A stretch of 64,000 nt of DNA. Origin: Klebsiella pneumoniae. Its GTDB lineage: Bacteria > Pseudomonadota > Gammaproteobacteria > Ga0077536. The notes under the pieces were generated by a model. The model had not been told where the DNA came from, did not search any database, and saw only the letters and a list, made by a program, of their open reading frames with translations. The stretch spans positions 17,890 to 81,889 of the forward strand of contig CAMAXW010000005.1 in NCBI GenBank assembly GCA_945862315.1. The letters are read 5' to 3'. Shown in pieces: positions 1 to 49,890 of the stretch (positions within the stretch are counted from its first letter, which is position 1; each line of letters starts with the position of its first letter). The translations under genes were made by a program, and so were the position numbers.

Positions 1-1746
1 ACTCCGCCGGCCCAAGCCCCGCGCAATCAGCGACTGCTGTACTTGGTCGCTAATTTCCGCCGCTTCCAGCAAGGCCGAGGTGGAAAGCCCTTCAGGTGCT
101 CTTGCTAAGCCCGCGATGGCCGTTACCACCTGAGCGTTCGCGTAGTCGCCGGCGCCCGCATCCCCAGCTGTTCGCGTTGGTGTTTGGAACTGTCGGCGCA
201 GCGCGAACTGTGTTTGAGCCGCGCTAAAGGCCTGTTGGAAATTAGGCGCGAGCGCGAGCCCCGGGCCTTGGCCAAAACCCATGGCGTGGCCTGGCCCCGT
301 GCTGGCCAGCATCGGTCCCTCGTTAATGAGAGTCGGCAACTCATTCAGCAGTGGGAAAAAAGAACCACCGACACCACCGACACCACCGACACCACCGACA
401 CCACCGACACCAGCGCCACCAGCGACACCAGCGCCACCAGCGCCACCAGCGCCACCACCGACACCACCGACACCACCGACACCACTGACACCACCGACAC
501 CACCGACACCACCGACACCACTGACACCAGCGACACCACCGACACCACCGACACCACCGACACCACTGACACCACCGACACCGCCGGCACCAGAGACACC
601 ACCGGCACCACCGGCACCACCGGCACCAGCGACACCACCGACACCAGCGACACCACCGACACCAGCGACACCACCGACACCAGCGACACCACCGGCACCA
701 CCGGCACCACCGGCACCAGCGACGGCGGGCACCCGATGCGGTCGGGGGCGTGCCTCGGAGCGGCGCACAACGAGGGGTTGCGGCGTCGGACCGAGCAGCG
801 GTTGAATATCGTTTTGCGTTAACAGGTCGATTAGATCGGCGCACAGGCGCGGCAAGTGCGTGTCGAGCAGGCGTCGGAGGATTCTAAATAACGCCTCGCC
901 GGTAGGTGGGTTCGCGAACTCTTCCTTGAGCGCATCAGCAAAAATGCCGCAGACTACCGCCGGTCCAAACGGATTAGAGCCCCTGTCGATCACGCGTCTC
1001 GCGAGCGAAGATAGGCGCGCAGCAAGCTCTTCAATGGCGGGTTCATTGGCACGTTCAAGTTCAGCGACGATGCCCGACAACGACAAAAAGTGCTCAAATT
1101 CCCTTTTCTCGATTAGAGATAATTTGCTGTCAAGATCAATCCCCCCCCCCTTGGCCGCAGGCTCCAAGGGGTTATTGAGAATGGCAGCCGCCCGGCTAAA
1201 CAGGGCATGGACCTGCGAGCGGATCGCCGCGCTGCGATCCTTCAGCCGCGTCAGCGCCTCGTGGATGGTTCGGCTTTCTCGGTCCGATCTGGCATCCCGG
1301 GCCGCCAAAAATAGGGCTTCACCGGTCTGACGCAGTAGTTCTTCGATCACCACACCCGAGCAGCGCTCCACGACTTGAAGAATTTTAGGCAGCGTACGGC
1401 CAAACTCTGGGGCGAGCCGACGTTGGGTCTCAGAGAGATTGTCGTACGTCGCGCCCGCCTGCGCGCTGGCGTAATGCTCCAAACGCTGAAGGCTGACTAG
1501 CGAGGGGCCTTTGAACGCTACCCCCAACCCTGCGGGAATGACCCGACAGATCACGAGACCCAGTTGGTCCTCCTCACCGCCTTCTTCTAAGCAGAAGCGC
1601 AATACCGCATGGGACTTAAGCTGGGTCTGCGCCAAAGTGTCCGCACCTAGCTGGATAAACATCCCAGCGACACAGAAATCCTTAACAATGCAGGCAACGG
1701 GAGGCCGCCCTTCAACGACGATTGAAGCGGGAAGCTGGATAGGCAT
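1..1746 (-). CDS. Partial (3' end beyond window) hypothetical protein, >580 aa. It has a PilZ-like N-terminal motif (RRRYIR ... DFCVAG). A central ~120-aa Gly-rich (GGV/GGA)n linker is followed by a C-terminal region.
   Basis: I translated the minus strand by hand. The frame stays open from the ATG at 1746 to position 1. The stop upstream is at 1861-1863. The sequence is protein-like ([33 protein letters not shown]...). This gene runs off the window edge, and the track omits such genes. The start could be an upstream GTG. Confidence 0.6.
364..722. repeat. Tandem array of about 40 copies of a 9-bp unit (ACCACCGAC, with ACCAGCGAC, ACCACTGAC and ACCACCGGC variants). It encodes (GGV/GGA)n on the minus strand and TTD/TSD repeats in the plus frame.
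   Basis: The periodicity is directly visible. All three reading frames across it are open (TTD, GGV and WCR repeats). Confidence 0.9.
1141..1150. repeat. Homopolymeric C10 tract (G10 on the coding minus strand, encoding K-GGG). It lies inside the partial CDS.
   Basis: Ten consecutive C read directly from the sequence. This is rare in a GC-rich coding region. Confidence 0.9.
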
Positions 1747-6116: not shown

Positions 6117-6578
6117 CTAAGTATTGTTATGGCGGATGCGGATAACGATATCCATGCCGCACGCATAAGTGCCAGAGGGTGGAGACGGCAGGTCGGCCAA
6201 CAAGGGTGGCTGCGCCTCGACATCCGTTAGGGTGCCATCGTCCATATTATAAAAATGGTAATGCGGGCGAGTATTGGAGTCGTAGAACACCTTGGAGGAA
6301 TCCACGCTGACTTGCCGCAGCAGGCCGCGCTCCACCAACAGGCCCAGCGTGTTGTACACCGTTGCCTTTGAAACCACCGCACCGCAACGGCTCATTTTTT
6401 CCATGACTTGGTCGGCCGACAGATGTTGCGCCTCGGCCAACAACATCGCGGCAATTTCCAAACGCTGGGGGGTCGGCAAAATGCCGTGCGTATTTAGCCT
6501 TTGCGCGAGTGCTAGCCGCGTTGCGGGGGTCAAGGTTGTCGCGTCTGGGTTGCTCATGCGTCGCAGTATACGCAGCAT
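6117..6578 (-). CDS. Fur-family transcriptional regulator (Fur/Zur/PerR type). It is divergent from the pilus minor-pilin operon.
   Basis: Fur-family sequence: PTPQRLEIAAMLLAEAQHLSADQV ... VSKATVYNTLGLLVERGLL ... HYHFYNMDDG. An alternative ATG start is at 6557. Confidence 0.75.
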   Translation of the reverse strand: MLRILRRMSNPDATTLTPATRLALAQRLNTHGILPTPQRLEIAAMLLAEAQHLSADQVMEKMSRCGAVVSKATVYNTLGLLVERGLLRQVSVDSSKVFYDSNTRPHYHFYNMDDGTLTDVEAQPPLLADLPSPPSGTYACGMDIVIRIRHNNT

Positions 6579-6752
6579 CGAAAGGCTGTCCAGATTGCCC
6601 TTGCCGCGAGGGGTTGCCCAGCGTGAGGAATGTCGACTGGTTCACAATTCAACCCTAGCCTGTAGAACGCAGTTGCCGTTCGTCGGACTGCCGCTACCGT
6701 CCGGCGGCTTTGCCCAAGCGTGGCGGCGACTCGATCGTTAATACTGCAATTC

Positions 6753-7364
6753 ATGAAACGCGCACGCGGCTTTACCCTCATTGAACTCATGACCACCATC
6801 GCCGTGTTGGGTGTGGTGCTGGGCATTGCCGTGCCCGGCGTACGGCAGTTAGCGCTGGACAATCGCCAAAGCACCCAGCTCAATCTTTTTTCCTCAACCC
6901 TCGCCATGGCTCGCAGTGAAGCCATCAAACAAAACACGCGGGTGGCGGTGTGCCCATCCAGCGACCGCCTCACCTGCGCCAGCGCCGGCACCGGCTGGCA
7001 GGCGGGTTGGATTGCCTACGTAGACCGCAATAGCAACCTCATCCATACGGCGTCACCTACCGGTTGCAACGAAGGCGTCACGACCTTGGACTGTCAACTC
7101 ATTGCGCAGGGCACGCTCTCCGGCAGCAGCCTGCTGACGGGCGCTAGCGGCGTTCCCAGCCTGATTGGCTACGATGGTTCGGGGGCGGCTTTCTGCGACG
7201 CCAATCAGGATGGCATACCAGAAAGCTGTCAGTCCTCGACAACCTACTTCACCCTGTGTGACACCCGCGGCGCCTCCTCAGCCCGCGGGCTGTCCGTCTC
7301 TACCACCGGCCGCACCTCGGTGATCGACAAAAAGCCTGACGGCAGCGCGCTCACCTGCCCATGA
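6753..7364 (+). CDS. fimT: Type IV pilus minor pilin, FimT/FimU (GspH) family
   Basis: Prepilin leader and methylation motif MKRARG/FTLIELM. The ORF track begins at a GTG at 6720. Confidence 0.8.
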   Translation: MKRARGFTLIELMTTIAVLGVVLGIAVPGVRQLALDNRQSTQLNLFSSTLAMARSEAIKQNTRVAVCPSSDRLTCASAGTGWQAGWIAYVDRNSNLIHTASPTGCNEGVTTLDCQLIAQGTLSGSSLLTGASGVPSLIGYDGSGAAFCDANQDGIPESCQSSTTYFTLCDTRGASSARGLSVSTTGRTSVIDKKPDGSALTCP

Positions 7365-7951
7365 ACAGGCTAACCCAGCGCCGGCGACAGGCAGCGGGCT
7401 TCACGCTACTGGAAGTGCTCATTGCGGTGGTGGTATTTGCCATTGGGCTGCTGGGGATTGCAGGGTTGCAGGTCGCTGGCCTGCGCTTCAGCCATGGGTC
7501 GCAACTGCGTTCTGTCGCCACCATGCAGGCGGAGAATATGGCCGACCACCTACGCGCCAATCAAGCGGGCGTGCTGGCCGGTGCCTATAACCAAACCAGC
7601 AGTTTACCGACCAGCTATTCGAAAGATTGCGACGCCGTCAATTGCACGTCTACTGAACTGGCGACCTTCCACCTCGCGACCTGGAATAGCCATGTTTCTA
7701 GCACCAAACCCAAGGAGTCCAACGCCGATGTGTTGCCTAGCGGCACCGGCACGGTGTGCATCGACTCCACGCCCAATGACGGTAGTGCCGGGAACTGGCG
7801 ATGCGACAACCTCGGCGTGGTGTATGCGATCAAAGTGGTCTGGACCGAGCGCACGACCGCACAAAATGACCTAGGCGATGCTAACGGTGACGGTGTCGCG
7901 GATGTCACGGACACCCGCCAGCAGTTACTGACACTGAGGGTTATTCCTTGA
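7361..7951 (+). CDS. pilV: Type IV pilus minor pilin PilV
   Basis: The N-terminus reads MNRLTQRRRQAAG/FTLLEVLIAVVV. It overlaps fimT by 4 nt, which suggests an operon. Confidence 0.8.
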   Translation: MNRLTQRRRQAAGFTLLEVLIAVVVFAIGLLGIAGLQVAGLRFSHGSQLRSVATMQAENMADHLRANQAGVLAGAYNQTSSLPTSYSKDCDAVNCTSTELATFHLATWNSHVSSTKPKESNADVLPSGTGTVCIDSTPNDGSAGNWRCDNLGVVYAIKVVWTERTTAQNDLGDANGDGVADVTDTRQQLLTLRVIP

Positions 7952-9021
7952 AAATAAATTATCCACCGGGCCGTCACCTGCAATCAGTCGGTCTTGGGCG
8001 GCGAGAGCATGGCGTTACGCTGGTCGAAATGATGGTCGCGCTGGTGGTAGGACTCATCTTGCTGGCGGGCATCGTGCAACTTTTTGCCAGCAACAAGCAG
8101 GCCTATCGGCTGCAGGAAGGCGCCAATGTGTTGAACGAAAACGCCCGGTTTGCGCTGGCGCAAATCCAGTACGACCTGCGCATGGCCGATCACTGGGGTG
8201 GCGTTGAAGCCAGCGAGGTCACGCTGCTAAGCGGCTTGGATAGCGTCACCAGCAACTGCGCCGGGACCGCCGCGGCCATCGTCGCGACGGGTCTTTATGG
8301 CTTTGACGGCACCGCGGCGTCGCCGCTCGCCTGTATTCCTGCCACCGACTATGTCGCCAATTCGGACATCCTGGTAGTGCGCTATGCCGATGCGCTCCGC
8401 AAGGCTTCCGGCAAGTTGGCAACCAACGATTTTTACCTGCGCAGCGCCATCGGTCGGCGGGCAATGATTTTCCAAGGCAAGACTAAAGCGAGTTTACCCT
8501 CGGACTTAGTGTCCGCCACGCCGACCCAAACCGATGCTTACGCGGAGTCCCCAGACGCGGCCAACTACCCTTTCCACTCGGTGGTTTATTTTCTGCGGCC
8601 CTGCGCCTCGCAAGACCGCGGCACCGCGGGCGTGTGCGATGCCGCGGATGACACCATCCCCACCTTGGCACGGCTAACCCTGCGCGGCACAAGCTTGGTG
8701 GAGGAAGACGTCATCGCCGGCGTGGAACAGCTGCAACTAAGCTACGGGGTGGACCTCAACGCGGACCTCGTACCCGATATCTACCGACGCGCTACCGACA
8801 TCACGACCAATAACGAATGGGCGAAGGTGGTGGACGTCAAGCTAAGCCTGTTAATTCGCAATGCCGAGCGCGATACCAGCTATACGGACACCACGACCTA
8901 CCAACTTTTTGGCGGCGTGAACGGTGCGCCAGTGAGTTACACCGTCCCCACCAACGCGCAGCAATTCCGGCGCAAGGTTTATAACGCCGCGGTCCAAGTC
9001 CGCAATATGACGCGTAGCTAA
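7948..9021 (+). CDS. pilW: Type IV pilus assembly protein PilW
   Basis: The N-terminus reads ...REHG/VTLVEMMVALVVGLIL, a prepilin-like sequence. It overlaps pilV by 4 nt. Confidence 0.75.
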   Translation: MKINYPPGRHLQSVGLGRREHGVTLVEMMVALVVGLILLAGIVQLFASNKQAYRLQEGANVLNENARFALAQIQYDLRMADHWGGVEASEVTLLSGLDSVTSNCAGTAAAIVATGLYGFDGTAASPLACIPATDYVANSDILVVRYADALRKASGKLATNDFYLRSAIGRRAMIFQGKTKASLPSDLVSATPTQTDAYAESPDAANYPFHSVVYFLRPCASQDRGTAGVCDAADDTIPTLARLTLRGTSLVEEDVIAGVEQLQLSYGVDLNADLVPDIYRRATDITTNNEWAKVVDVKLSLLIRNAERDTSYTDTTTYQLFGGVNGAPVSYTVPTNAQQFRRKVYNAAVQVRNMTRS

Positions 9022-9027
9022 GCAACT

Positions 9028-9654
9028 ATGAACCCACAACATCCTTCCAAATTTAGTCCGCAGGCAGGGGTGGCGCTCATCATGGCGCTGGTGTTGCTGC
9101 TGGTCATGACCATGGTGGCTGTGGTGGCCATGCGCTCCACTACCCTAGATCTCAAAATGACCACCAACAATACGCAGACCCGACGCGCCTTTCAGGGCTC
9201 TGACGGCGCGCGGGACGTCATAACACCCGTGCTCGCATCGCACGTCTTCTACCACGGTTGGCCTACCTCGCTAACCGGTGGCACGGTGGCCGCCAGCGCG
9301 AGTTTCACCATTCCTCAGGGACTCACCGTGCGGAACGCGGCGCAGCGTTTGGACCTAGCGCAAAACGGGACGTACACGCGTTTCAGTGGCAGCCCCAATT
9401 CTGACCTCAGCTTCAAAGACGATGTGAATAGCAATGGCACGATGGACCCTGATGACGTGAACGCCGAATTGTGGGTCACCCGGATCGGCGCCTTGCCCGC
9501 GGCGGGCAGCAACATGGGTTCCAACGCGGCGGATCAGGGTGCGGGTGGGGGGGGCGCCAGCAAGTACATTTTGTTTGATTTACGCTCCGACGGTCGCGCC
9601 GTCGGCAACGCGCAAGCGCGCACCGGGGCCGATTACCGCGCGCTGATTCGTTGA
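9028..9654 (+). CDS. pilX: Type IV pilus assembly protein PilX
   Basis: The N-terminus reads MNPQHPSKFSPQAGVALIMALVLLLVMTMVAVVAMRSTTLDLKMTTN, typical of a PilX N-terminal domain. Confidence 0.7.
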   Translation: MNPQHPSKFSPQAGVALIMALVLLLVMTMVAVVAMRSTTLDLKMTTNNTQTRRAFQGSDGARDVITPVLASHVFYHGWPTSLTGGTVAASASFTIPQGLTVRNAAQRLDLAQNGTYTRFSGSPNSDLSFKDDVNSNGTMDPDDVNAELWVTRIGALPAAGSNMGSNAADQGAGGGGASKYILFDLRSDGRAVGNAQARTGADYRALIR

Positions 9655-9658
9655 ACCG

Positions 9659-9773
9659 CCCACGTAGAACGCGCGTTAGTACCCGCGTAGAACGCCCGAA
9701 ATTGCCCGCGTAGAACGCCCGACATTGCCCGCGTAGAACGCCCGAAATTGCCCGCGTAGAACGCCCGACATTG
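9659..9773. repeat. Five head-to-tail copies of a 23-bp unit (CCCGCGTAGAACGCCCGAMATTG; the first copy is degenerate). They lie between pilX and pilY1.
   Basis: Units at 9659-9681 (degenerate), 9682-9704, 9705-9727, 9728-9750 and 9751-9773. They alternate AAATTG and ACATTG tails. The pilY1 ATG is 14 nt downstream. Confidence 0.9.
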
Positions 9774-9786
9774 GAGTACCAAGAGC

Positions 9787-12700
9787 ATGAAAATTAGCAA
9801 AACCTGCACGGGTTTTTTACACGGCCTAGCGCTGAGCATGGCCTTGCTGCCTGCGCTGTGGAGCGCCGGGGCACAGGCTGCGGCGTCTAATTTGTCGGGG
9901 CGATTGATGGCGCAATTCGTGGCCGCCCCCATTCTGACGGCGCAGTCCGTCCCACCGCTGGTGATGCTTTCCATGTCGCTAGACCACCAGTACTGGCAGA
10001 AGTCCTACAACGACTATACCGACCTCAACGGCGATGGCGTGGTCGAACGCAGCTATCTGGATAGCTTTGAGTACTACGGTTATTTTCACGCCGAGCGCTG
10101 CTACACCTATAGCGACACCAATAAGGTGTTCACCGCCGTAGGGGTTGCCGCGGGCACTAATAATCACTATTGCGAAGGTGCACTCAGTACGGCGTGGAGC
10201 GGCAATTTCCTCAACTGGGTCGCAATGGCCCGCATGGACGTCGTGCGTAAAATTCTGTACGGCGGCCAGCGCTCTACTGATACCGCCACCCAAACCATTC
10301 TCGAACGCACCTTCCTCCCCGGGGACGCCCATAGCTTTGCCAAGTATTACAACGGCGCGGACATCGCAAAGCTCACGCCGTATGACTCGCTAAGAACGGA
10401 CACCCTCAACGGTGGCAACAATAACGGCGTTGACAATAGCGACGAAGGCATTAGCTTCTGCAATATTTCTTTCGCGGCAAGCGGGAATTCGCAGACCTCC
10501 ACGGCACTGCCCTTGATGCGGGTGGCCAAGGGTAATTTCTCCTTGTGGAACGCCAACGAGCGGCGCCAATGCAGTTGGCAGGACGAGTTTGGCAACAATA
10601 GCGATAGCAATGTGTCCAGTGAGTCTGGCATTTTTGCCAGTGCCGGCGATCCCCCAGATGCCTCCGCCTTAAAAACGCCGAGCAGCAACCGCGACCACGT
10701 GGTGCGCGTAGAAGTTTGCGCAGCAACTTACTTTGACGAAAATCGCGACCTAGAGAACTGCGCAGACTACGGCGCAAACCGCAAACCCGAAGGCCTGTTG
10801 CAAACCTACGGGCTTACGGGGCTGATGCAGTTTGGCCTGCTGACCGGCAGCTATCAAAAAAACCTCTCCGGCGGCGCCCTACGCAAGCGCATTGCCACGC
10901 TGAACGATGAGATCAACACCACTGATGGGACTTTCAAAACCCTCTCAGCCTCCACGCCGGGCATCATTAAAACCCTCAACGCGGTGCGAATTTTCGGTTA
11001 TGGGTACACCAACGGCACGTATCTGTCTGGCGATGGCGGCGACGATTGCACCTTTCTACTGACCGACATTCGCACCGAGGGTGGCGGGCCGGGAGAAGGC
11101 AAATGCGCGAGTTGGGGCAATCCGATGTCGGAAATCTATCTCGAGGCCATCCGTTATTTTGCCTCAACCACGCGTGCGGCCACCAGCGCGTTTAACGCCG
11201 ACGACAGCACGTACATCACTAATTTGGCGCGCGATACCAACTGGGCAGCACCGCTCACGACCACCAATGCCTGCGCATCTCTGAGCACCATTGTGTTTAA
11301 TGCCAGCGTGTCTTCTTACGATGAAGACCAGACCAACCCCTCACCCTTGACCAGCAGCACCGCTGCAGCGCTCACGAAAACGGTGGGCGATGGCGAGGGC
11401 ATTACAGGCAACAACTATTTCATTGGTAGGAACGGCAGCCTTAGCGATGAATTTTGTACCGCCAAACCGCTCAGTGGGGCTAACGGCTTGGGCGACGCTT
11501 TAGGTCTGTGCCCGGAAGCCCCCACCTTGCGCGGCTCCTACCATATGGCAGGCCTAGCGCACTGGGCGCATACCAACGACATCTCCACGGCGCTCTCCGG
11601 GGTGCAAACAGTTCGAACTTTTGCCGTGGCACTGCAAACCGGCACACCCGTCATCCAAGTGCCCGTCACGGGCGGTGTGGTTAAGATTCTGCCCGCCTAC
11701 CGGCTACGGAAAGGTGGCAATAACACTAATGAATCAAGCAACGTCCCGGCCAACGATGGCGGCGGCACCCTGGTGGACTTCAAGGTAGTCCGCCCCCATA
11801 CAGAAGTTGTAAGCGCGTCCAATCTCACCGCCGCGACTAACACCGGTTTCTTTAATGCCAAGTTCTACGTCAACTGGGAAGACTCCGAACAGGGCGGGGA
11901 CTTTGACCAAGATATGTGGGGCACTATCGAGTATCTGGTTAATCAAAACGTAACACCGGCTACGGTCACCATCACCACCAAAGCGGTTGCCCAATCCACC
12001 ATCACCGGGCAGCTATTTGGTTTTGTGACCAACGGCACCACGCAAGATGGCTTCCACGCCTACTCGGGCATTCTAGGCGCCAACTACTACGCCAGCACCG
12101 GCTTCGATCCCTCCGGAGTGAAGGGTTGCAACAACTGCCGGGCACTCTCTGAGACGGGTGGCCAACAAGGAGCGCAGTCCTACACCTTCACGGTAAAAAC
12201 CGGCAGCAACGCGAACCTCCTAGAATCCCCGTTGTATTACGCCGCCAAGTGGGGCGGCTTTGAGGACTCCGACGCCAATAAAACCCCCAAAATCGCGGCG
12301 GCTCCCAGCGACACGCGAGAATGGGATGCTGATGGCGATGGCATTCCGGATACCTTTTTCTTTGTGAGCGACCCAGGTCTGCTGGAAGCCACCCTACGCA
12401 CGGTGTTTAACAGCATTCTGGAACGGGTGTCCTCCGGTACCGCAGCGGCCGTCGTGGCCAATGAGCAGAAGGGTAATGGCGCTATTTTTCAAGCGCTATA
12501 CGACCCGGAAAAAAAGGACGCTGATGGCAATACGGCGCGCTGGATAGGCACTTTGCAGGCCTTGTTTGTGGATTCCCATGGGCTTATTCGTGAAGACGGC
12601 AACGCGGATGGCAAGTTAGATGACTACGCCACTGATAAAGTACTGCGTTTGGAATTCGACGATGGCGCCAGCACCGCCGCCGAAGAACGCCGGACCAAAG

Positions 12701-14961
12701 CCGTTCGCTACACCCCGGTGACACCCAACGCTACCAACCCCGACACCACCGATTTGGCACAGTTCACACCCGAAGCGCCAATTGAACTCTCGGCAGTGAA
12801 CACCCTTTGGAATGCGCGTAAAAATCTCTCCGCGTTAAATAACACCAGCATCACCACGCAGCGCACCTACAGTGCCACCGCGGATACGGGGCGCTATATT
12901 TTTACGTGGTTGGATGGCAGTGGCACGAGCACGCCCAATAACTTAGTGGCTAGCGCAGAAGTAGTGCCTTTTGTTGCGAGCAGTATCACCGCCGCAAACT
13001 ACTACTGGCTGGACTATTTCAACACCTCCGACACCAGCGCCAACAAATACACCGGGGCGCGGCGACTGGTGGACTGGGTGCGTGGGAAAGAAAGCGTCTC
13101 AACCGAATTCCGTAGCCGGCTGTTGGACTACGATGGGCTGTCCGGCTCTGGTGGCGTGGCCGTCATGCGTCTGGGCGATATTATCAATTCCACCCCGGTC
13201 TCGGTGAGCGCGCCCTTCGCCAACTTTGACCAATCGGCACTGGATCCCTCTTATGCCACCTTCCGTGCCCTTTATAGCCAGCGCCGCCAAATGGTTTACG
13301 TGGGCTCCAACGATGGGATGATCCATGCGTTTAACGCCGGCTTCTACAATGCAGATGATCAACAATTTCAACTAGCACCCACGAGCGGCAGCACGCTCAC
13401 CCGTCACCCGCTCGGCAGCGAAATTTGGGCCTATGTGCCCAAGAACGCGCTACCTCATTTGCAGTGGATGGCGCGCCCCGATTACTCCCACGTTTACACC
13501 GTAGATTTACCGCTGCGGGTGTTTGACGTAAAAAGCTTCCCCGCCGATAGCACCCATCCCGGCGGCTGGGGCACGATATTAGTGGCTGGCATGCGTTTCG
13601 GCGGCGGTACCGACACCACCGGCATCTCAGTGGATGTGGGTGCCGATGGTGCGACCACCGCGAACGTCACCACCAAATCGGCCTATGTGGTGTTAGACAT
13701 CACCAATCCAGAAGTCGCGCCAACGCTGCTGGCCGAACTAAGCCCCACCAACTTGCAGTTCTCAACCTCCATTCCACAGGTGGCGGCGTTTGGCGACCCT
13801 TCCGGCACCACGGCCGGCAAGTGGTATTTGGTGTTCGGCTCAGGCCCTACCGATTTTGCCAACGCCCAGTACGCCTCCGGCAGCGGTAATACCAAAGCTC
13901 GGCTGTTTGTATACGACTTGGCCAATTTGGGGACGGCATCCAGTTTGGCGGCCTCGCCCGCCAACCTGAAATATCAGAATACCCCACCCGCAACCCAGAC
14001 CTTCGCGATGCCAGACAACAACGTCTTTGTCGGCGATCCCGTCAGCACGGATTTCGACATCGACATGAAGGACGAGGCAATTTATTTCGGCACGGTGGGG
14101 CCGCTGGTGGCGGCAGGCGCCACGCCGCCCAGCACCACAGGGACCCAGGGCAGCCTGTTCCGGATGTTGCTCAACGAGAACTCCAGTCCGGGCACTTGGA
14201 CCGGCCCCACGCGCCTGCTGTCCAATCTCAACCAGCCCTTTGTGGGACAACCAGCCGTCACCATCGACAGCAAAAACCGGCGGTGGGTGCTGGCCGCTAC
14301 CGGGCGGCTGTTCGTCAACGGCGACAAATCAACCCGCGACCAGCAGACCCTCTACGGCATTATTGACACCGCCTTTAGCGGATCGACCAAGCCGGCGGTT
14401 ATCAGCGATTTGGTGGATGTCTCGGCGGCCCAAGTATTCTCCAACGACACCGCGACCGGTGTGACACTGGCAACAGGTAGCGACACCGATGGTAACGGCG
14501 CCACCTCCACCTTGGAGCTGCGCAACGCGATAGCCACCGCGGGCGGCTGGCGCAAGAACTTGACCATCACCACCGCCAGCCCGGCGGAACGCAGCAGCAG
14601 CCGCCTCACGCTCTTCGGCGGCATTGTGTTTGGCTCCATGTTCACCCCCAGCACAGATCTATGTTCATCTGATGGCACTAGCCGCTTACTGGGCTTGGAC
14701 TTCACTACCGGCGCACCCCCGATACTAGGCGTCTTTGATTGTGCTAACTGCAACGACCCCACAGTGCCGCTGCCGGAAAGCCTGTCACAGGGCGGCGGCT
14801 ATTCCTCTAGCGCGAGCGTGCACTTTGGTGAGCAAACCATCGAAGGGCGGGTCACGGTAATTACCCAAGACTCGCGTGGTGAACTGGAGGCCAGTCAAGT
14901 CAACACGAGTAGCGGCAACCCGGCCAGCGAAATATCATGGCGGGAGTCCCGAGGTGACTAA
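9787..14961 (+). CDS. pilY1: Type IV pilus tip adhesin and biogenesis factor PilY1 (PilC family), unusually large at 1724 aa
   Basis: Signal peptide followed by a huge Thr/Ser/Gly/Asn-rich protein. The C-terminal PilY1 beta-propeller hallmark is ...VYVGSNDGMIHAFNAGFYN... The gene sits between pilX and pilE. Confidence 0.8.
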   Translation: MKISKTCTGFLHGLALSMALLPALWSAGAQAAASNLSGRLMAQFVAAPILTAQSVPPLVMLSMSLDHQYWQKSYNDYTDLNGDGVVERSYLDSFEYYGYFHAERCYTYSDTNKVFTAVGVAAGTNNHYCEGALSTAWSGNFLNWVAMARMDVVRKILYGGQRSTDTATQTILERTFLPGDAHSFAKYYNGADIAKLTPYDSLRTDTLNGGNNNGVDNSDEGISFCNISFAASGNSQTSTALPLMRVAKGNFSLWNANERRQCSWQDEFGNNSDSNVSSESGIFASAGDPPDASALKTPSSNRDHVVRVEVCAATYFDENRDLENCADYGANRKPEGLLQTYGLTGLMQFGLLTGSYQKNLSGGALRKRIATLNDEINTTDGTFKTLSASTPGIIKTLNAVRIFGYGYTNGTYLSGDGGDDCTFLLTDIRTEGGGPGEGKCASWGNPMSEIYLEAIRYFASTTRAATSAFNADDSTYITNLARDTNWAAPLTTTNACASLSTIVFNASVSSYDEDQTNPSPLTSSTAAALTKTVGDGEGITGNNYFIGRNGSLSDEFCTAKPLSGANGLGDALGLCPEAPTLRGSYHMAGLAHWAHTNDISTALSGVQTVRTFAVALQTGTPVIQVPVTGGVVKILPAYRLRKGGNNTNESSNVPANDGGGTLVDFKVVRPHTEVVSASNLTAATNTGFFNAKFYVNWEDSEQGGDFDQDMWGTIEYLVNQNVTPATVTITTKAVAQSTITGQLFGFVTNGTTQDGFHAYSGILGANYYASTGFDPSGVKGCNNCRALSETGGQQGAQSYTFTVKTGSNANLLESPLYYAAKWGGFEDSDANKTPKIAAAPSDTREWDADGDGIPDTFFFVSDPGLLEATLRTVFNSILERVSSGTAAAVVANEQKGNGAIFQALYDPEKKDADGNTARWIGTLQALFVDSHGLIREDGNADGKLDDYATDKVLRLEFDDGASTAAEERRTKAVRYTPVTPNATNPDTTDLAQFTPEAPIELSAVNTLWNARKNLSALNNTSITTQRTYSATADTGRYIFTWLDGSGTSTPNNLVASAEVVPFVASSITAANYYWLDYFNTSDTSANKYTGARRLVDWVRGKESVSTEFRSRLLDYDGLSGSGGVAVMRLGDIINSTPVSVSAPFANFDQSALDPSYATFRALYSQRRQMVYVGSNDGMIHAFNAGFYNADDQQFQLAPTSGSTLTRHPLGSEIWAYVPKNALPHLQWMARPDYSHVYTVDLPLRVFDVKSFPADSTHPGGWGTILVAGMRFGGGTDTTGISVDVGADGATTANVTTKSAYVVLDITNPEVAPTLLAELSPTNLQFSTSIPQVAAFGDPSGTTAGKWYLVFGSGPTDFANAQYASGSGNTKARLFVYDLANLGTASSLAASPANLKYQNTPPATQTFAMPDNNVFVGDPVSTDFDIDMKDEAIYFGTVGPLVAAGATPPSTTGTQGSLFRMLLNENSSPGTWTGPTRLLSNLNQPFVGQPAVTIDSKNRRWVLAATGRLFVNGDKSTRDQQTLYGIIDTAFSGSTKPAVISDLVDVSAAQVFSNDTATGVTLATGSDTDGNGATSTLELRNAIATAGGWRKNLTITTASPAERSSSRLTLFGGIVFGSMFTPSTDLCSSDGTSRLLGLDFTTGAPPILGVFDCANCNDPTVPLPESLSQGGGYSSSASVHFGEQTIEGRVTVITQDSRGELEASQVNTSSGNPASEISWRESRGD

Positions 14962-14987
14962 ATCGATGACACAGCGCGCGCGCCAAA

Positions 14988-15473
14988 ATGGACACTAAAA
15001 TCATGCAGCAAGCAGCAGGCGGCACTCGGGTCTTGGCGCCGGCCCGACTAAAACAAACCGGCATGACATTAATCGAACTGATGGTGGTCTTGGCGGTCGT
15101 CGGCATTTTGACCGCGTTTGCCTATCCGAGCTACCAGAGTTCCATGTTCAAATCCCGGCGCACCGACGGCAAAGTGCTATTGCTGGATATCGCGGCGCGA
15201 GAAGAACGCTATTTCATGGATAACAGCACCTACACCACCACGCTGACCGAACTGGGTTATGGAGCAAACACGCTCACCTCAAATGAGGGTTTTTATACGG
15301 TTGGGATCGTCGCCGGGCCTTCGGGCAGCATCGCTTCCAGTTACACCATTACAGCCACACCCGTGAGCGCCAAATGGGGCAGCAGCGGTGACACCCAGTG
15401 CGGGAATCTATTGCTCGACTCGCGTGGCAACCAGACCAGTTCCTCGGGAACCACGGCGACGTGCTGGAACTAA
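14988..15473 (+). CDS. pilE: Type IV pilin-like protein PilE (minor pilin)
   Basis: Leader and motif ...KQTG/MTLIELMVVLAVVGILTAFAYPSY. A C-terminal Cys pair is present. The ORF track calls the start at 14988. Confidence 0.8.
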   Translation: MDTKIMQQAAGGTRVLAPARLKQTGMTLIELMVVLAVVGILTAFAYPSYQSSMFKSRRTDGKVLLLDIAAREERYFMDNSTYTTTLTELGYGANTLTSNEGFYTVGIVAGPSGSIASSYTITATPVSAKWGSSGDTQCGNLLLDSRGNQTSSSGTTATCWN

Positions 15474-15937
15474 GCGCCACCAGAGGGCCTCACGCCTGCC
15501 ATGGAAGGGCACTGCTGTGGCTCTTGCTGTGTGTTGTCGGGCTGCCGGTGTCGGCGCAGAGCGCCTATCGTTGGCAGGACGACACTGGCCAAACGGTGTT
15601 TTCGCAGCATCCGCCAGCGGGCGTCAGCGCCGTGCCGGTCGCGGCCCACCCCGGCACCGCAAGCCCCGATCATCAAGCACTATTGGCCAAAGACCGCCAA
15701 CAGTTCGCGCCCCCGCCGCCCGCCGCAACACCTGCCCCGCGCCCGCCACCCACGCCTAAAGAACTCGCGCAATTGGCTGAGGCGTGCGCGCAAGCGCAGG
15801 GGGCGCTCAGTCTTTTGCTGGAATACAGCCGCCCGCACTACGTGGATGCGCAGGGCCAGCGGGCGTATATGAGTGAGTCCATGCAGGCGGAAAGAATTGT
15901 CGATGCTCAGCAGAAGTCAGCGGCGTACTGCCGCTGA
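15461..15937 (+). CDS. DUF4124-domain periplasmic protein (paralog 1)
   Basis: Long signal peptide followed by YRWQDDTGQTVFSQHPP, a DUF4124 signature. A Pro-rich linker follows. There is no in-frame ATG after the pilE stop. I propose a GTG at 15461, which overlaps pilE by 13 nt (15461-15473). The track's GTG at 15398 would overlap by 76 nt. Confidence 0.55.
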   Translation: MLELSATRGPHACHGRALLWLLLCVVGLPVSAQSAYRWQDDTGQTVFSQHPPAGVSAVPVAAHPGTASPDHQALLAKDRQQFAPPPPAATPAPRPPPTPKELAQLAEACAQAQGALSLLLEYSRPHYVDAQGQRAYMSESMQAERIVDAQQKSAAYCR

Positions 15938-20418: not shown

Positions 20419-22607
<2,189 letters not shown>

Positions 22608-42533: not shown

Positions 42534-45071
42534 ATGCGTGATCCCGCCACCCACACCCCGGTCATGCAGCAGTATCTAGGCATTAAAGCCGAGTATCCCG
42601 ACCGTTTGCTGTTCTATCGCATGGGCGATTTTTATGAACTGTTCTTCGAAGACGCCCAACGCGCGGCCCGCCTCCTCGATATTGCCTTGACCAGTCGCGG
42701 GGACAGCGGCGGCGAGAAAATCCCGATGGCGGGGGTGCCGGCACACGCGGCAGAACAATACCTGGCGCGGCTGCTGAAACTCGGCGAATCGGTGGTGATT
42801 TGCGAACAGGTGGGCGACCCTGCGACGTCCAAAGGACCCGTCGAACGGCGGGTAGCCCGGGTGCTCACACCAGGCACTGTGACCGACGATGCGCTGCTCA
42901 CCGCGCGCGCCGAAACACTGCTGGCGGCCGTGCATGCGGTGGGCGAAACCCTCGGTTTGGCATGGGTTGATTTGGCCAGCGGTCGCTTCCTAGTCACCCC
43001 GCTCACCGACCTGGCAACCCTTGCCGCCGAGCTCAGCCGCCTCGCGCCGGCAGAAACACTGGTTGCGGAAGGCTGGCAGCCAACGTTCGCCATCCCCGGC
43101 CTGCGTCACCGCCCCGCCGCGCAGTTTGCAGCCCCCACGGCTGAACGGCGCCTACGCGCCAGCTTCCAACTGGGCAGTCTGCGGGCCTTAGGGCTAGACG
43201 ATACGCCGGCGCTCGCAGGGGCCGCTGGGGCCCTGCTCGCGTATTGCGAGGAAACCCAATGCGGACCCCTGCCCCACCTGCAACCGCCCATGGTGGAACT
43301 GACTTCGGAGGCGGTGGTGCTCGATGCGGCAACCCGGCGGCATCTCGAAATTGCGATTGGTCCGGACGGCGATGAACGCCACACCTTAGTGGCCTTGATG
43401 GATACCAGCATCACCGCCATGGGTGGTCGTCTGCTGCGGCGTTGGCTACAACGGCCAAGCCGGAATCAAACCGAGCTCACGCTGCGGCTGGAGACCGTCA
43501 GCGCCTTGATCCACACCAGCGTGCTCGACGACGCGCGATTACAGCTACGCGGCGCCGGCGATTTAGAACGCATCGTCACGCGGATTGCTTTGGGCAGCGC
43601 CCGTCCGCGCGATTTGGTCAGCCTGCGCCACACCCTGGACATGCTCCCTCATTTGACGAACTTACTGGCGCCACTGGCCGTACCGCGTTTGGCAGCTCTC
43701 TGCGCGCTGTGCCCGGCCTACGCCACTCAGGCCAACCTGTTAGCCCGAGCAGTCGCCGACAGCCCGCCGGCCATCGCGCGCGATGGGGGGGTAATCGCGC
43801 CAGGTTTCGATCCCGAACTGGACGAATTGCGACAACTGGCCGGCGACGCCGATCGCTATCTGCTCGATCTGGAACGTCGCGAACGTGAACGCAGCGGCAT
43901 TGCAACGCTCAAAGTGGGCTACAACCGCGTGCATGGTTATTACTTGGAACTCGGTCGCAGCCGTGGCGACGAGGTGCCGGCGGATTATGTCCGGCGACAA
44001 ACGCTAAAGGGCGTCGAGCGCTACATCACCCCTGAGCTTAAATCTTTTGAAACCAAAATTTTACACGCGCATGAGCAGGCGCTGGCGCGCGAGCGCCAAC
44101 TCTACGCAGCACTGCTCACCGAACTGGCACTGGCCACCACACCGTTGCAGGCCAGCGCCGCCGCGCTCGCGGAAATCGATGTCTTGGCCTGCTTTGCCGA
44201 GCGCGCGCAGAGCCTTGGGTATCACGCGCCGCAGTTTGTGCAAACACCCGGCATCGCCATCACCCAAGGCCGCCACCCCGTGGTGGAACAGCGCTGCGAA
44301 GATCCCTTTGTTGCCAATGATTTAAACCTCGATGCAGCGCATCGCATGCTGGTAGTGACCGGCCCCAATATGGGTGGAAAATCTACCTATATGCGCCAAG
44401 CGGCGCTCATCGCAGTACTCGCGCACAGCGGTAGCTTTGTGCCGGCGCGGCACGCCGAGTTTGGTCCTTTGGATCGCATTTTTACCCGCATCGGCGCCGC
44501 CGACAGCGTGAGTCGCGGTCACAGTACTTTTATGCTGGAAATGACCGAAACGGCGCATATCCTGCGCTACGCCACGCCGCAAAGTCTGGTGTTAGTGGAT
44601 GAAATTGGTCGCGGCACCAGTACCTTCGATGGCTTGTCCTTGGCGTGGGCGACGGCCGAACATCTGGCACAGGTCAATCAGGCATTTACCTTGTTTGCCA
44701 CCCATTATTTTGAGTTGACTAGCCTCGCCAATGAGATTCCCCTGATCAGCAATGTGCGTATGGACGCGATTGAACACGATGAAAAAGTCGTTTTTCTGCA
44801 CGCGGTGCGCGCCGGCCCGGCCAATCAAAGTTTTGGTTTGGCGGTTGCCCTATTGGCCGGTATGCCGCGCGCGGTGGTGCAGCGGGCACGGGCACGGCTC
44901 GCGCTACTCACGGCGCATTATGTGACGCCACTGCCACTCGCGACGCCCAGCATGCCGGCGCCGCCAGAATGCCCCACCTTGGCGCTGCTGCGCGCGAGCG
45001 ACCCCGACACGCTCAGCCCGCGCGACGCGCTGAACCTCATCTACCGCTTGCGCGCCACGCTATCGGACTAA
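42534..45071 (+). CDS. mutS: DNA mismatch repair protein MutS
   Basis: 845 aa. The Walker A motif [13 protein letters not shown] is present and the sequence is MutS-like throughout. Confidence 0.95.
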
Positions 45072-46473: not shown

Positions 46474-49035
46474 ATGCAGGGATCTTTTTGGAAATCCGAC
46501 CGTTTCTTCGGTGCACTGATCTCGATCGGTCTCATCGCTGCGTGGTTGCTAAACCTGCCGATGCTGGAGCGCCTCGAAGGCGACGCCTACGACCTTGGGG
46601 TTCGGCTGTCCTCCCGTGAGGCCAGCGCCCGAAAGGATCAAATTGTGATCGTGGCAATCGACGATCAAAGCATTCAAAGCATCGGGCGGTGGCCGTGGCC
46701 GCGCGACGTGCACGCCAGTCTGATCAAAAAACTGACTGAAGCCGGCGCTAAAACCATCGCCTCAACGGTGTTCTACTCAGAACCGCAGGTCGACCCGGGT
46801 CTAAAATGGCTGCAACAACTGCGCGACCAACTTGCTGGTGCGGTGGTCAACGGTGCCAAAGGCGACCCCCAACAAACGCTCGACGCGGCCTTGGCAGCAC
46901 TGGACACAGATGCCATTTTAGGGCGAACCCTCCATGAAACCGGCAACACGGTCTTGGGGATGCAGTTCGAACCCGGTGAAGTGCTGGGCAACCCCGACGC
47001 GCCACTGCCGGCGTTTGTCACCCGCTTTGCTATTCCAACTGAAAATATCAGCGACCCCGCCGGGACCAATGAAGAATTCCCGATCACCACCGTCAAGGCA
47101 GCCCCGCCCGTGGCGCTAGTGGGCGATTCCGCAGCCGGACTAGGCGCGCTCATCAACCCGCTCGACAACGACGGCACGCTGCGCCGTGAACCCCTCGCGG
47201 TGCGTTATTACGACCAGTACTTCCCCTCGCTGTCGTTGGCCACCGCGGCGCGCAGCCTCAATTTAGGGGTCAAAGACATCCGCGTTCAGCGCGGCGATTC
47301 GGTACAACTGGGTGGGCTGTCCATCAAGACCGATGCAGCCTCGCTGATGAACACGTTTTACTACGGTGAGCACGACGGACGCGCGCCGTTCCCTGTTTAT
47401 TCCTTCTACAACGTCATCCAAGGCGAAATCGCCATGGACAGCTTCAAGGGTAAAATTGTGCTGGTGGGGGCGACGGCCTTTGGCGTCGGTTCGGATCTCC
47501 GCACGCCGCTGGGCGAGGCCAAAGGTCCCGTGCTGATTTTGGCACACCAAATCGCGAGCATTTTGAACCAGCATTTCTTTGTGCAGCCGAACTGGGCTTT
47601 TGGCGTCGAACTGCTGGCCATCCTGCTCGTGGCCGCCTACCTCATCGCACTGCTGCCGTTGCTTAAGGCCGGCGCCGGCGCGCTGACCAGCGCGGGCATT
47701 TTGCTGGCGCTACTGGCAACAGAACTCGGCGTCATGATCGGCACCGCCAACTGGATCCGCCTCGCCACTGCCGCGGCCCTGCTGGTCGTCGGCCATCTGC
47801 TGCTCACGACCAAACGCTATCTAGCGACGGAACGTGGTGCGCTCGACAGCGATATAAAAGCCGCCCTGTCTAACCGCCAACTGGCGCTGCAATTCCAGCA
47901 AAAAGGTGAACTCGACAACGCCTTCGAATACTTCCGTCGCTGCCCGGTCGATGAACAGGTTTTAGAGTCCTTGTATGCCTTAGCTACTGACTTTCAGGTT
48001 AAACGTAAACCCGAGAAATCCATGCTCGTCTACGAGTACATGCACGCTAAGAACCCTAAGTTTCGCGACATCCAGTCCAAAATCAATCAAGCCCGCCACC
48101 AAATGGAAACCCAGGCGCTCTATCCTAGCGGTCGACCGTTGGGCGCCGGCGGGGCTGCGCAAACGGCCGTACTGGCGGGGACGGGCGGCGCTAGCCAAAC
48201 CATGCTGGGTCGCTACGCGGTGGAACGCGAACTCGGTAAGGGCGCGATGGGGGTTGTTTATCTGGGTAAAGACCCCAAGATCAACCGGGTGGTGGCGATC
48301 AAAACCATGGCGCTGTCCCAAGAATTTGAAGCGGATGAACTGGAAGAGGTGAAAGCGCGCTTCTTCCGCGAAGCCGAAACCGCTGGACGCCTCCAGCATC
48401 CCAATATCGTGACCATTTACGATGCGGGCGAAGAACACGACCTCGCGTACATCGCGATGGAGTTTCTGGAAGGTCACGACCTCTCTCGTTACACCAAATT
48501 GGACACCCTGCTACCGTTGTCGGTGGTGCTGGGCATTATCTTCAAATCGGCCCTGGCGCTGGATTATGCCCACAAGGCCAATGTGGTCCATCGCGACATC
48601 AAGCCCGCCAACATCATGTTTGAGCCCACCAAAAAAACCGTGAAAATCACTGACTTTGGCATCGCTCGTATCACTGACTCCAGCAGAACCAAAACCGGCA
48701 TGGTGCTCGGCACTCCCTCCTACATGTCGCCCGAGCAGCTCTCGGGTAAAAAAGTGGATGGCCGCTCTGATTTATTTTCACTCGGGGTGATGCTGTACCA
48801 AATGGTCATTGGCAAGCTGCCTTTCCAAGGTGAGTCGATGGCCACGCTGATGTACAAAATCGCCAACGAACCCCATAAGGAACTCGCCGAACTCAAACCC
48901 GAACTGGCGGCGCAGCGGCCCTGTCTATCGGAAATCATCAACCGGTCGTTGCAGAAAGATGTCAACGCGCGGTACCAAACCGGCGCCGACATGGCCCGAG
49001 ATCTCCAAAACTGCGCCAAGCAGGTCACCGGCTAA
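46474..49035 (+). CDS. CHASE2-sensor Ser/Thr protein kinase (Hanks type)
   Basis: The N-terminal CHASE2 region reads ...IVIVAIDDQSIQSIGRWPWPRDVHASLI... A transmembrane block follows. The C-terminal kinase has an intact Gly-loop (LGKGAMGVVY), VAIK, HRDIKPANI and DFG. Confidence 0.85.
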   Translation: MQGSFWKSDRFFGALISIGLIAAWLLNLPMLERLEGDAYDLGVRLSSREASARKDQIVIVAIDDQSIQSIGRWPWPRDVHASLIKKLTEAGAKTIASTVFYSEPQVDPGLKWLQQLRDQLAGAVVNGAKGDPQQTLDAALAALDTDAILGRTLHETGNTVLGMQFEPGEVLGNPDAPLPAFVTRFAIPTENISDPAGTNEEFPITTVKAAPPVALVGDSAAGLGALINPLDNDGTLRREPLAVRYYDQYFPSLSLATAARSLNLGVKDIRVQRGDSVQLGGLSIKTDAASLMNTFYYGEHDGRAPFPVYSFYNVIQGEIAMDSFKGKIVLVGATAFGVGSDLRTPLGEAKGPVLILAHQIASILNQHFFVQPNWAFGVELLAILLVAAYLIALLPLLKAGAGALTSAGILLALLATELGVMIGTANWIRLATAAALLVVGHLLLTTKRYLATERGALDSDIKAALSNRQLALQFQQKGELDNAFEYFRRCPVDEQVLESLYALATDFQVKRKPEKSMLVYEYMHAKNPKFRDIQSKINQARHQMETQALYPSGRPLGAGGAAQTAVLAGTGGASQTMLGRYAVERELGKGAMGVVYLGKDPKINRVVAIKTMALSQEFEADELEEVKARFFREAETAGRLQHPNIVTIYDAGEEHDLAYIAMEFLEGHDLSRYTKLDTLLPLSVVLGIIFKSALALDYAHKANVVHRDIKPANIMFEPTKKTVKITDFGIARITDSSRTKTGMVLGTPSYMSPEQLSGKKVDGRSDLFSLGVMLYQMVIGKLPFQGESMATLMYKIANEPHKELAELKPELAAQRPCLSEIINRSLQKDVNARYQTGADMARDLQNCAKQVTG

Positions 49036-49050
49036 AGCCGGCACCTGACC

Positions 49051-49881
49051 ATGCTAAGCAGTAACGTGGAGTTCGCTATCGTCTCTGACCCCGGCCTCAA
49101 ACGCACGCATAACGAAGACAGTGCCCTCACCGACCGGAGCTTAGGGCTAGCGCTAATTGCCGATGGCATGGGGGGCTACAAATCGGGTGAAGTAGCCAGC
49201 GCGATTGCTGCCCAGTGCGTGCTGGAGGGGATTCGTGAAAACCACAACAAGCACCACTTCGTGCGCGGCACCGACGAGCAAAAAACATCCCAAGAAGGGC
49301 TGCTGATTCGCAAAGTCATATGTGCGGCTAATCAACGTATTTTTCGCACCGCGCATGCGTTGCCGCAGTGTCATGGAATGGGTACGACGATTGTCGCGGC
49401 GTTGTTTAGTGAGAACCACGTGACGCTGGCCCACGTGGGTGACTCGCGCATCTATCGGTTTCGTAATAACCAAATGTCACAGGTCACTAACGACCATTCC
49501 CTGCTGCAAGAACTCATCGACAGAGGCTTCTACACGCCGGAGGACGCGCGGGCCAACACGCCCAAAAACCTTGTCACACGAGCGCTGGGAATAGACGAAC
49601 AAGTAGCAGTAGAAGTGACGGAACACGCGACAGAAGAGGGGGACATCTTCCTGCTCTGTTCGGATGGCTTGAATGATATGGTGGAAGATGAAGAAATTAG
49701 TTTAACCCTCGGGAAATATAGTGCTAATCTTCTGACGTGCGCAAAAGAACTAGTCCGCCTCGCCAACCAAAATGGCGGTAAAGACAACGTATCTGTCGTG
49801 CTCGCTCGACCACGCGCACCCACTAACGAAGGTGTAAGTCTTCTCGCCAGACTCAAAAAGCTCTTGTTTAGAGCCAGCTGA
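49051..49881 (+). CDS. PP2C-family Ser/Thr phosphatase
   Basis: Carries the ADGMGG, LCSDGL and GGKDNVSVVL motifs. Confidence 0.85.
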   Translation: MLSSNVEFAIVSDPGLKRTHNEDSALTDRSLGLALIADGMGGYKSGEVASAIAAQCVLEGIRENHNKHHFVRGTDEQKTSQEGLLIRKVICAANQRIFRTAHALPQCHGMGTTIVAALFSENHVTLAHVGDSRIYRFRNNQMSQVTNDHSLLQELIDRGFYTPEDARANTPKNLVTRALGIDEQVAVEVTEHATEEGDIFLLCSDGLNDMVEDEEISLTLGKYSANLLTCAKELVRLANQNGGKDNVSVVLARPRAPTNEGVSLLARLKKLLFRAS

Positions 49882-49890
49882 CAGGAAACG

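Follow-up and report, generated by a model that had tools for sequence, protein, structure and literature searches.

The pilX-pilY1 spacer and its repeats

The locus is a minor-pilin operon on the + strand of the window, by which we mean the whole 64-kb stretch of DNA analysed here. Its genes were recognised with Pfam, and the spacer between pilX and pilY1 holds a tandem array that is part of the operon transcript. The genes and the features of the spacer are as follows.

6753-15473, + strand: minor-pilin operon (fimT/GspH-like, pilV, pilW, pilX, pilY1, pilE-like; Pfam), with the array in its transcript
6753-7364, + strand: GspH/FimT-like gene (Pfam)
7361-7951, + strand: pilV (Pfam)
7948-9021, + strand: pilW (Pfam)
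9028-9654, + strand: pilX, 208 aa, Pfam PilX_N; its TGA stop ends at 9654
9655-9658, + strand: left flank of the array, ACCG, invariant across alleles
9659-9681, + strand: unit 0, CCCACGTAGAACGCGCGTTAGTA, an old diverged copy with 6 mismatches to the consensus
9682-9704, + strand: unit 1, perfect, 'A' variant, CCCGCGTAGAACGCCCGAAATTG
9705-9727, + strand: unit 2, perfect, 'C' variant, CCCGCGTAGAACGCCCGACATTG
9728-9750, + strand: unit 3, perfect, 'A' variant, CCCGCGTAGAACGCCCGAAATTG
9751-9773, + strand: unit 4, perfect, 'C' variant, CCCGCGTAGAACGCCCGACATTG; the gene-proximal unit, found in all alleles
9773-9786, + strand: pilY1 ribosome-binding region, GGAGTACCAAGAGC, with GGAG and then 10 nt to the ATG
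9787-14961, + strand: pilY1, 1724 aa, Pfam T4P_PilY1 (beta-propeller), N-terminal signal peptide
14988-15473, + strand: pilE-like minor pilin gene with a ComP_DUS domain (Pfam)

The order of the operon genes is unchanged in all relatives compared. PilY1 has 1579 homologues, those bearing names come from uncultured Gammaproteobacteria MAGs, and the start and signal peptide of the protein are conserved in relatives. Two other contigs, one of 137.6 kb from an ENA metagenome (ERZ27280263) and one from Logan, encode an identical PilX. The PilX C-terminus (...DYRAL(I/V)R, then the stop) is conserved in the relative L009. Because both the end of PilX and the signal peptide of PilY1 are conserved in relatives, the 132-bp spacer between the genes is truly untranslated. 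In alleles with at least three units, a TAG inside the units closes all three reading frames.

The original prediction described five abutting 23-bp repeats within the minor-pilin operon, between pilX and pilY1. Pfam confirms both flanking genes, and the period of 23 and the array itself hold; the units are not equal, with four perfect copies and a degenerate unit 0. The array spans 115 bp of the + strand (9659-9773). Tandem Repeats Finder calls it at 9658-9773 with period 23, 5.0 copies, 89% matches, no indels and a score of 176. Units 1-4 differ from one another at one position only, at which A and C alternate, so that units 3-4 repeat units 1-2 exactly; Tandem Repeats Finder reports this 46-bp duplication as a separate period-46 row. 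The array unit was matched four times at up to 3 mismatches, vs 0 in 100 dinucleotide shuffles, and the four units matched at up to 1 mismatch, vs 0 expected. The GGAG Shine-Dalgarno sequence (9773-9776) starts on the last G of the array, at 9773, and 13 nt lie between the array and the pilY1 ATG at 9787. The position is suggestive in its own right, directly upstream of a gene for a pilus adhesin/sensor.

Repeat number among relatives

Orthologous loci were reached through the PilY1 proteins of one 90%-identity cluster. Among these close relatives the pilX-pilY1 spacer comes in a series of lengths of exactly 40+23n bp:

132-bp spacer: 5 units; the window and L001
109-bp spacer: 4 units (u0, C, A, C); L008, which is GCA_947485645.1, with 98.7% nucleotide identity to the window over 13 kb
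86-bp spacer: 3 units, mutually diverged, the middle one CCCGCGGGGAACGCTCGTTATTG; L153 and L154
63-bp spacer: 2 units; nine assemblies, L003-L007 and L149-L152
40-bp spacer: 1 unit, inferred from gene coordinates only; the contig of P0001

Neither the left flank, ACCG, nor the right flank, GAGTACCAAGAGC-ATG, changes from allele to allele, save for one substitution in the 3-unit lineage. The ribosome-binding region keeps a constant distance to the ATG. Its sequence does not differ between the 2-, 4- and 5-unit alleles, and the 3-unit allele departs from it by one substitution. Spacer lengths that all follow 40+23n, together with near-invariant flanks, show that the array is a variable-number tandem repeat. 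A copy-number-variable spacer was among the possibilities first raised for this array, and comparing repeat number between strains bears it out: alleles of 2, 3, 4 and 5 units are sequenced, and the single-unit allele is deduced. With head-to-tail repeats of high identity, length steps of whole units between strains and conserved flanks, the array belongs to the known class of bacterial intergenic VNTRs or minisatellites (MLVA-type loci). It resembles the VNTRs used for MLVA typing in its head-to-tail unit within the 10-100 bp range, its whole-unit changes between conserved flanks, its intergenic site and the confinement of its perfect units to a recently expanded sub-lineage. Compared with ordinary VNTR loci, its only special point is that it lies within an operon and ends 13 nt short of the pilY1 start codon.

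Unit 0 is the first unit of all sequenced alleles, with lineage-specific substitutions. In the 2- and 3-unit alleles the units are mutually diverged, and perfect units occur only in the sub-lineage of the window, in its 4- and 5-unit alleles. The 2-unit assemblies are about 94% identical to the window (for the seven that were aligned to it), and their allele is identical in all nine. Since this allele is shared by nine assemblies and the 3-unit allele consists of diverged units, most alleles appear to be stable rather than hypermutable. On these comparisons, recent change is confined to the sub-lineage with perfect units, represented by the window and L008.

Could the array be an assembly artefact, or a generic dispersed element of the REP type? 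We regard either as hardly credible. Short-read assemblers can collapse repeats, and one k=31 Logan contig (L002) does end inside the array, a break that we attribute to the assembler. Against this, the array is backed by two separate assemblies, as L001 differs from the window by 7 SNPs over 6.6 kb and yet carries the identical 5-unit array. Contig names of the k141_ type point to k=141, which exceeds the 92 bp of the perfect part of the array, and each copy number is tied to its own haplotype of flanking SNPs. As for dispersal, a search of the 64 kb at up to 6/23 mismatches returned no further copy of the unit apart from one chance-like coding match, so that the REP-like element named as the refuting alternative is not seen within the window. 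The exact 23-mer had 0 matches in JGI metagenome contigs and viral contigs. Its 17-mer core CCCGCGTAGAACGCCCG, a short pattern, had at least 120 single-copy matches in a genome collection, scattered over GC-rich genomes of unrelated groups, Actinomycetota and Chloroflexia among them; none was tandem among the matches listed, and likeness beyond the 17-mer was at chance level. REP and BIME elements have many dispersed copies and a stable imperfect palindrome, and the array shows neither, the dispersal test covering the window and the 13-kb relatives and the predicted fold being no more stable than shuffles (z = +0.92).

Further out, where PilY1 identity is 56-69%, we compared the orthologous loci of L009, thirteen from JGI and, by coordinates, that of P0007. 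These share the gene order, including the divergent Fur-family gene, and their pilX-pilY1 spacers are 22-55 bp long. GGAG is present in these spacers, and neither the 23-bp unit nor CGCGTAGAACGC was found in them. The array is thus lineage-specific and not a conserved control element of pilY1; judging from these loci, it is an innovation of one species-level group.

The repeat sequence also changes within that group. The middle unit of the 3-unit allele is without the TAG of the putative core (GCGGGGAACGC), which indicates that the core drifts. Comparison across lineages shows less variation in the 14 nt at the 5' end of the unit (CCCGCGTAGAACGC) than in the 9 nt at its 3' end (1/28 vs 5/18 sites; Fisher p=0.028). 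This partition was picked post hoc, and it gives p=0.18 when counted by columns over the eight distinct units. Lower variation in CCCGCGTAGAACGC would fit a constrained motif followed by a spacer, and we take it as a weak signal.

Possible functions and origin of the array

Nothing that we tested marks the array as a regulator-binding site, a promoter or an RNA switch. A DNA- or RNA-binding factor at the array may nevertheless be compatible with the lack of both a sigma-70 consensus and a predicted fold.

That the units are sites for a DNA-binding regulator, of the AlgR/LytTR type or another, acting inside the operon, seems to us improbable. The direct repeats do have a better-conserved 14-nt part and a variable 9-nt part, and the conserved part contains a short palindrome, GCGT-AGA-ACGC; by inspection this is only a 4-bp GCGT/ACGC stem. 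The array also shares with the P. aeruginosa AlgR sites upstream of fimU-pilVWXY1E the type of operon and the minus-strand pentamer CGTTC (PMC4064291). However, its minus-strand core GCGTTCTAC matches the AlgR consensus CCGTTCGTC at 6/9 positions, a score that 44% of random 23-mers drawn from the window equal or exceed. The core begins with GC, and the period of 23, where 21-22 would be expected, leaves a 14-bp spacer between cores. Spacers of 13 bp also occur in LytTR direct repeats. The typical arrangement for LytTR regulators is that of 9-bp direct repeats with a 12-bp spacer, and the AlgR sites characterised in a review all begin with CC (PMC4064291). The motif is missing from the distant orthologous spacers and from the rest of the window, no promoter is near, and no LytTR-domain protein was found among the subset of window ORFs that was scanned. 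The 'stack of AlgR-type sites' that had been proposed is therefore not supported, with its chance-level match, its 14-bp spacer and its absence from distant orthologues; an exact AlgR consensus occurs in the window at the operon promoter only. Compared with the P. aeruginosa sites, the array has the wrong spacing and strand, lies inside the operon and is not conserved.

The 9-mer GTAGAACGC of the array recurs at the fimT-like promoter, 14 bp upstream of the AlgR-type box there, and we considered it as a link to a regulator site. An equal alignment score is reached in 14.5% of random 175-bp windows, so we dropped the sharing as evidence. In the sister clade, GCAGAACGC stands in place of this 9-mer at the promoter.

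An internal promoter made by the repeat, or a transcriptional attenuator or terminator, is less probable still. The geometry invites the idea: a period of 23 equals 6+17 and spaces a hexamer 17 bp from its next copy (TAGAAC-N17-TAGAAC). By inspection, the 'C' variant creates CCGACA, with 4/6 of TTGACA, and CGAAAT/GAAATT follow 18-19 nt on in the 'A' unit. But TAGAAC ends in C where a -10 element critically needs T, and the best -35/-10 pairings need spacers of 18-19 nt and hexamers matching at 3/6. A consensus scan returned neither a sigma-70-like promoter nor a terminator-like site in or next to the array, and there is no hairpin followed by a U-tract as an attenuator would have. Rfam places no family on the array, and only three tRNAs in the window reach the gathering threshold. 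Predicted RNA folding of 9625-9830 is not more stable than that of shuffles (z = +0.92). The suggestion of an internal promoter or attenuator is thus not supported by the scan for promoters and hairpins or by the fold. For a sigma-54 (-24/-12) geometry, inspection by eye turned up TTGC but no suitably spaced GG. No other run of GGG tracts in the window is as long as the one that the array forms on the template strand, with 8 tracts; we rejected a G-quadruplex there, as its loops would measure 10/7/10 nt, more than a confident call allows.

Repeats of M. tuberculosis are a precedent for a promoter in tandem repeats. The array is like its promoter tandem repeats and its MIRUs in having tandem units of tens of bp, upstream of or between genes, with polymorphic copy number. 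MIRUs are said to be dispersed at many loci, with small ORFs that bridge the flanking genes. The array has no bridging ORF, given the TAG that closes the frames at three or more units, and no second locus was found in the 64-kb window. The M. tuberculosis promoter tandem repeats duplicate promoter elements, and their copy number upstream of a gene sets its expression (PMC12817950); in this the array differs, with no detectable promoter element.

It is tempting to speculate that copy number acts as a contingency-like rheostat, setting the level of PilY1, and of the pilE-like gene that follows, against that of the minor pilins. We consider this possible but unlikely. In such a scheme each added unit would lengthen a moderately C-rich, unstructured and naked stretch of RNA, with more Rho loading, more RNase E cleavage or less hand-over of ribosomes, and output would fall in steps. 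Copy number does vary between close strains right upstream of a fixed ribosome-binding site, the RNA of the array is predicted to be unstructured, and YC dimers recur every 10-13 nt with a C/G ratio of 1.18-1.53. Each unit also contains, by inspection, an RNWUU-type motif, which we take to be RNase E-like and count in favour of the idea. Repeats in the 5'-UTR of H. influenzae hmw1A (PMC12721329) and in M. tuberculosis promoters (PMC12817950) are precedents. On the other side, the C/G ratio is unexceptional as the composition of a Rho-utilisation site, since 14-17% of 78-nt windows are as C-rich, and we rejected the array as such a site on this basis. Most alleles are stable, the re-initiation literature predicts small effects, and Shine-Dalgarno accessibility is constant: its predicted probability of being unpaired goes from 0.50 to 0.49 for 1 to 7 units. 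A related formulation, in which each unit adds either naked RNA or a site for a factor recognising CCCGCGTAGAACGC and thereby alters or lowers pilY1-pilE expression relative to the minor pilins, is in our judgement equally doubtful.

The hmw genes offer a comparison for such tuning. In hmw1A/hmw2A of H. influenzae, a 7-bp unit in the 5'-UTR is present in 11 or more copies, which fold with a G-rich arm into a long hairpin cleaved by RNase III, with expression inversely proportional to copy number (PMC12721329, PMC8262952). The array likewise is transcribed, lies upstream of an adhesin gene and varies in copy number between strains. Unlike the hmw repeats, it has a 23-bp unit in 1-5 copies and no significant predicted hairpin. 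A G-rich stretch at the 3' end of pilX (9537-9554) pairs extensively with the C-rich units in the MFE structure. This pairing is no better than that of shuffled arrays (z = +0.38), the duplex being weaker than the shuffle mean, so that a hairpin of the hmw type is absent.

Taken together, it seems probable that the array is a passive, near-neutral and young VNTR or minisatellite, restricted to one lineage and sitting in the transcribed but untranslated pilX-pilY1 spacer. An old 23-bp duplication would later, after identical units had come to lie side by side, have expanded and contracted by slipped-strand mispairing or by unequal recombination. A parsimonious history would start from (u0, C). 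Duplication of the C unit and a C-to-A substitution would have given (u0, A, C), a 46-bp duplication would then have produced the (u0, A, C, A, C) of the window, and a change of one unit would account for the difference from L008.

As a near-neutral repeat, the array would have no dedicated signal function and would be carried along as a passenger in the polycistronic mRNA. Its sole predictable effect would be a longer unstructured and untranslated stretch, of 40 to 132 nt, before an unchanged pilY1 ribosome-binding site. Termination-reinitiation coupling is nearly abolished already at about 20 nt (PMC10666635), and long-distance re-initiation drops only 1.4- to 2-fold per 100 nt (PMC4538824). 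From these data a large effect of spacer length on pilY1 is not expected. Strong translational coupling was rejected as a mechanism, since with coupling lost at about 20 nt a change from 40 to 132 nt should matter little. Short spacers also limit sites for endoribonucleases (PMC4538824), so that with more naked RNA in the spacer the transcript could become modestly less stable or more polar. The output of PilY1 would change little or, at most, be somewhat lower, because fewer ribosomes would re-initiate after pilX and RNases or Rho would meet more naked RNA.

Neisseria PilC is a phase-variable homologue of PilY1, switched on and off by frameshifts in a homopolymer inside the ORF. The tract in question is reportedly a poly-G run in the region of pilC that encodes the signal peptide. 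Both systems show repeat-mediated length polymorphism at the 5' end of a PilY1/PilC homologue; the array, by contrast, has a 23-bp unit and, being outside the ORF, cannot shift the frame of pilY1. It also differs from simple-sequence contingency loci in general. Those have short units of 1-9 bp in many copies, are hypermutable and reversible within a population and place the repeat in an ORF or between -35 and -10, whereas the array has at most 5 copies of 23 bp, outside both ORFs and with no flanking promoter hexamers.

The array is thus ordinary in kind, and its position before pilY1 leaves a modest chance of a tunable adhesin. If it is a spacer polymorphism only, its value is practical: it can mark strains of an uncultured lineage, and it warns that assemblers using a short k break off at this site or collapse it. 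Should copy number tune PilY1, repeat-mediated variation of adhesins would extend from host-adapted pathogens to environmental bacteria, by means of an intercistronic repeat with a long unit. A true rheostat would give environmental populations heritable and reversible diversity in pilus adhesion, and the array would be a long-unit operon analogue of the contingency loci of pathogens.

The operon promoter

Our examination of AlgR-type sites yielded a by-product that is biologically more solid than the array itself, an exact AlgR/LytTR-type pair at the fimT-like promoter:

6676-6705, + strand: AlgR/LytTR-type direct-repeat pair, CCGTTCGTC-N12-CCGTCCGGC, 77 bp upstream of the fimT-like ATG

No other exact CCGTTCGTC and no other CCGTNC-N15-CCGTNC pair occur in the 64 kb. 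The interval has the architecture described in PMC4064291 and is likely to be the real regulator site of the operon. The pair is conserved in L003 and L008. In L009, a relative of 65% identity, the intergenic promoter region between fur and fimT carries CCGTTCATG-N12-CCGTTCAGC. This suggests that the minor-pilin operon is under AlgR-type control not only in Pseudomonas, from which such control is known, but also in this distant uncultured group.

Putative control elements of the minor-pilin operon

The minor-pilin operon and a divergent Fur-family gene share an intergenic region; the features in and beside it are as follows.

Window 6676-6705, plus strand: AlgR/LytTR-type direct-repeat pair CCGTTCGTC-N12-CCGTCCGGC, 77 bp before the fimT-like ATG
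Counterparts of this pair: L009 (a more distant relative) 1572-1601; L003 (a close relative with two units of the 23-bp repeat) 959-988; L008 (a close relative with four units) 913-942
Window 6117-6578, minus strand: Fur-family regulator gene, divergent from the minor-pilin operon
Window 6592-6565, minus strand: predicted sigma-70-like promoter for the Fur-family gene

The exact AlgR consensus occurs only once in the 64 kb, at the pair in 6676-6705, and the window holds no second pair of this kind. In L009, at 65% identity, CCGTTCATG-N12-CCGTTCAGC lies within the fur-fimT intergenic/promoter region. Because the window pair is matched by one of the same architecture in so distant a relative, the sequences suggest that this uncultured lineage has conserved an AlgR-like control of its minor-pilin operon. 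The synteny of the Fur-family gene with the operon was seen in every relative examined, including those at 61-65% identity. The top NCBIfam similarity of the regulator itself is to Irr/PerR, at scores under the cut-offs.

The pilX-pilY1 junction

The 23-bp array breaks short-k assemblies: a Logan contig (k = 31) that encodes a pilX identical to the window's stops inside the array, 57 nt into the pilX-pilY1 spacer (L002, 3628-3684). Array alleles are therefore under-sampled in public contigs.

The spacer of L134 (2946-3000), a more distant relative with 61% PilY1 identity, carries a short direct duplication of its own that differs from the array (ATCAGGCAAGT then ATCAGGCAAAC). Small duplications seem to be recurrent at the junction.

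About 100 nt upstream of its stop, pilX contains a G8 homopolymer (window 9547-9554) coding for Gly-Gly-Gly, which is a potentially frameshift-prone tract. It is restricted to the clade of the window and L008, with GGCGGGGGTGGC in the sister clade and GGCGGCGGT in L009; the reading frame is intact in all four assemblies that carry G8. Within the two-unit clade, pilY1 was called as two consecutive ORFs in L151 (1201-5418; 1005 + 721 aa) and in L152 (1201-3651; 416 + 619 aa); either the gene is frameshifted or a pseudogene there, or the assemblies are in error.

Other genes and repeats in the window

Window 14988-15937: pilE-like minor pilin with a ComP_DUS domain (Pfam, E = 1.3e-19), then a DUF4124 protein
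Window 364-723: 9-bp tandem repeat ACCACCGAC, 40 copies, 90% identity
Window 46474-50607, plus strand: Ser/Thr protein kinase of 853 aa, clustered with a PP2C phosphatase and a protein that has an FHA domain

The pilE-like and DUF4124 gene pair, 3' of pilY1, is kept in relatives. The ACCACCGAC array, the biggest repeat of the window, runs in frame through a putative ORF (184-822), for which no Pfam match was found, and would encode (Thr-Thr-Asp)n with S/A/G variants. A C10 homopolymer (1141-1150) apparently lies between ORFs, with an AT-rich stretch nearby, and a C8 homopolymer (20909-20916) falls within the region of a proB-like minus-strand ORF (20419-21678). The kinase/PP2C/FHA cluster is downstream of mutS (42534-45071).
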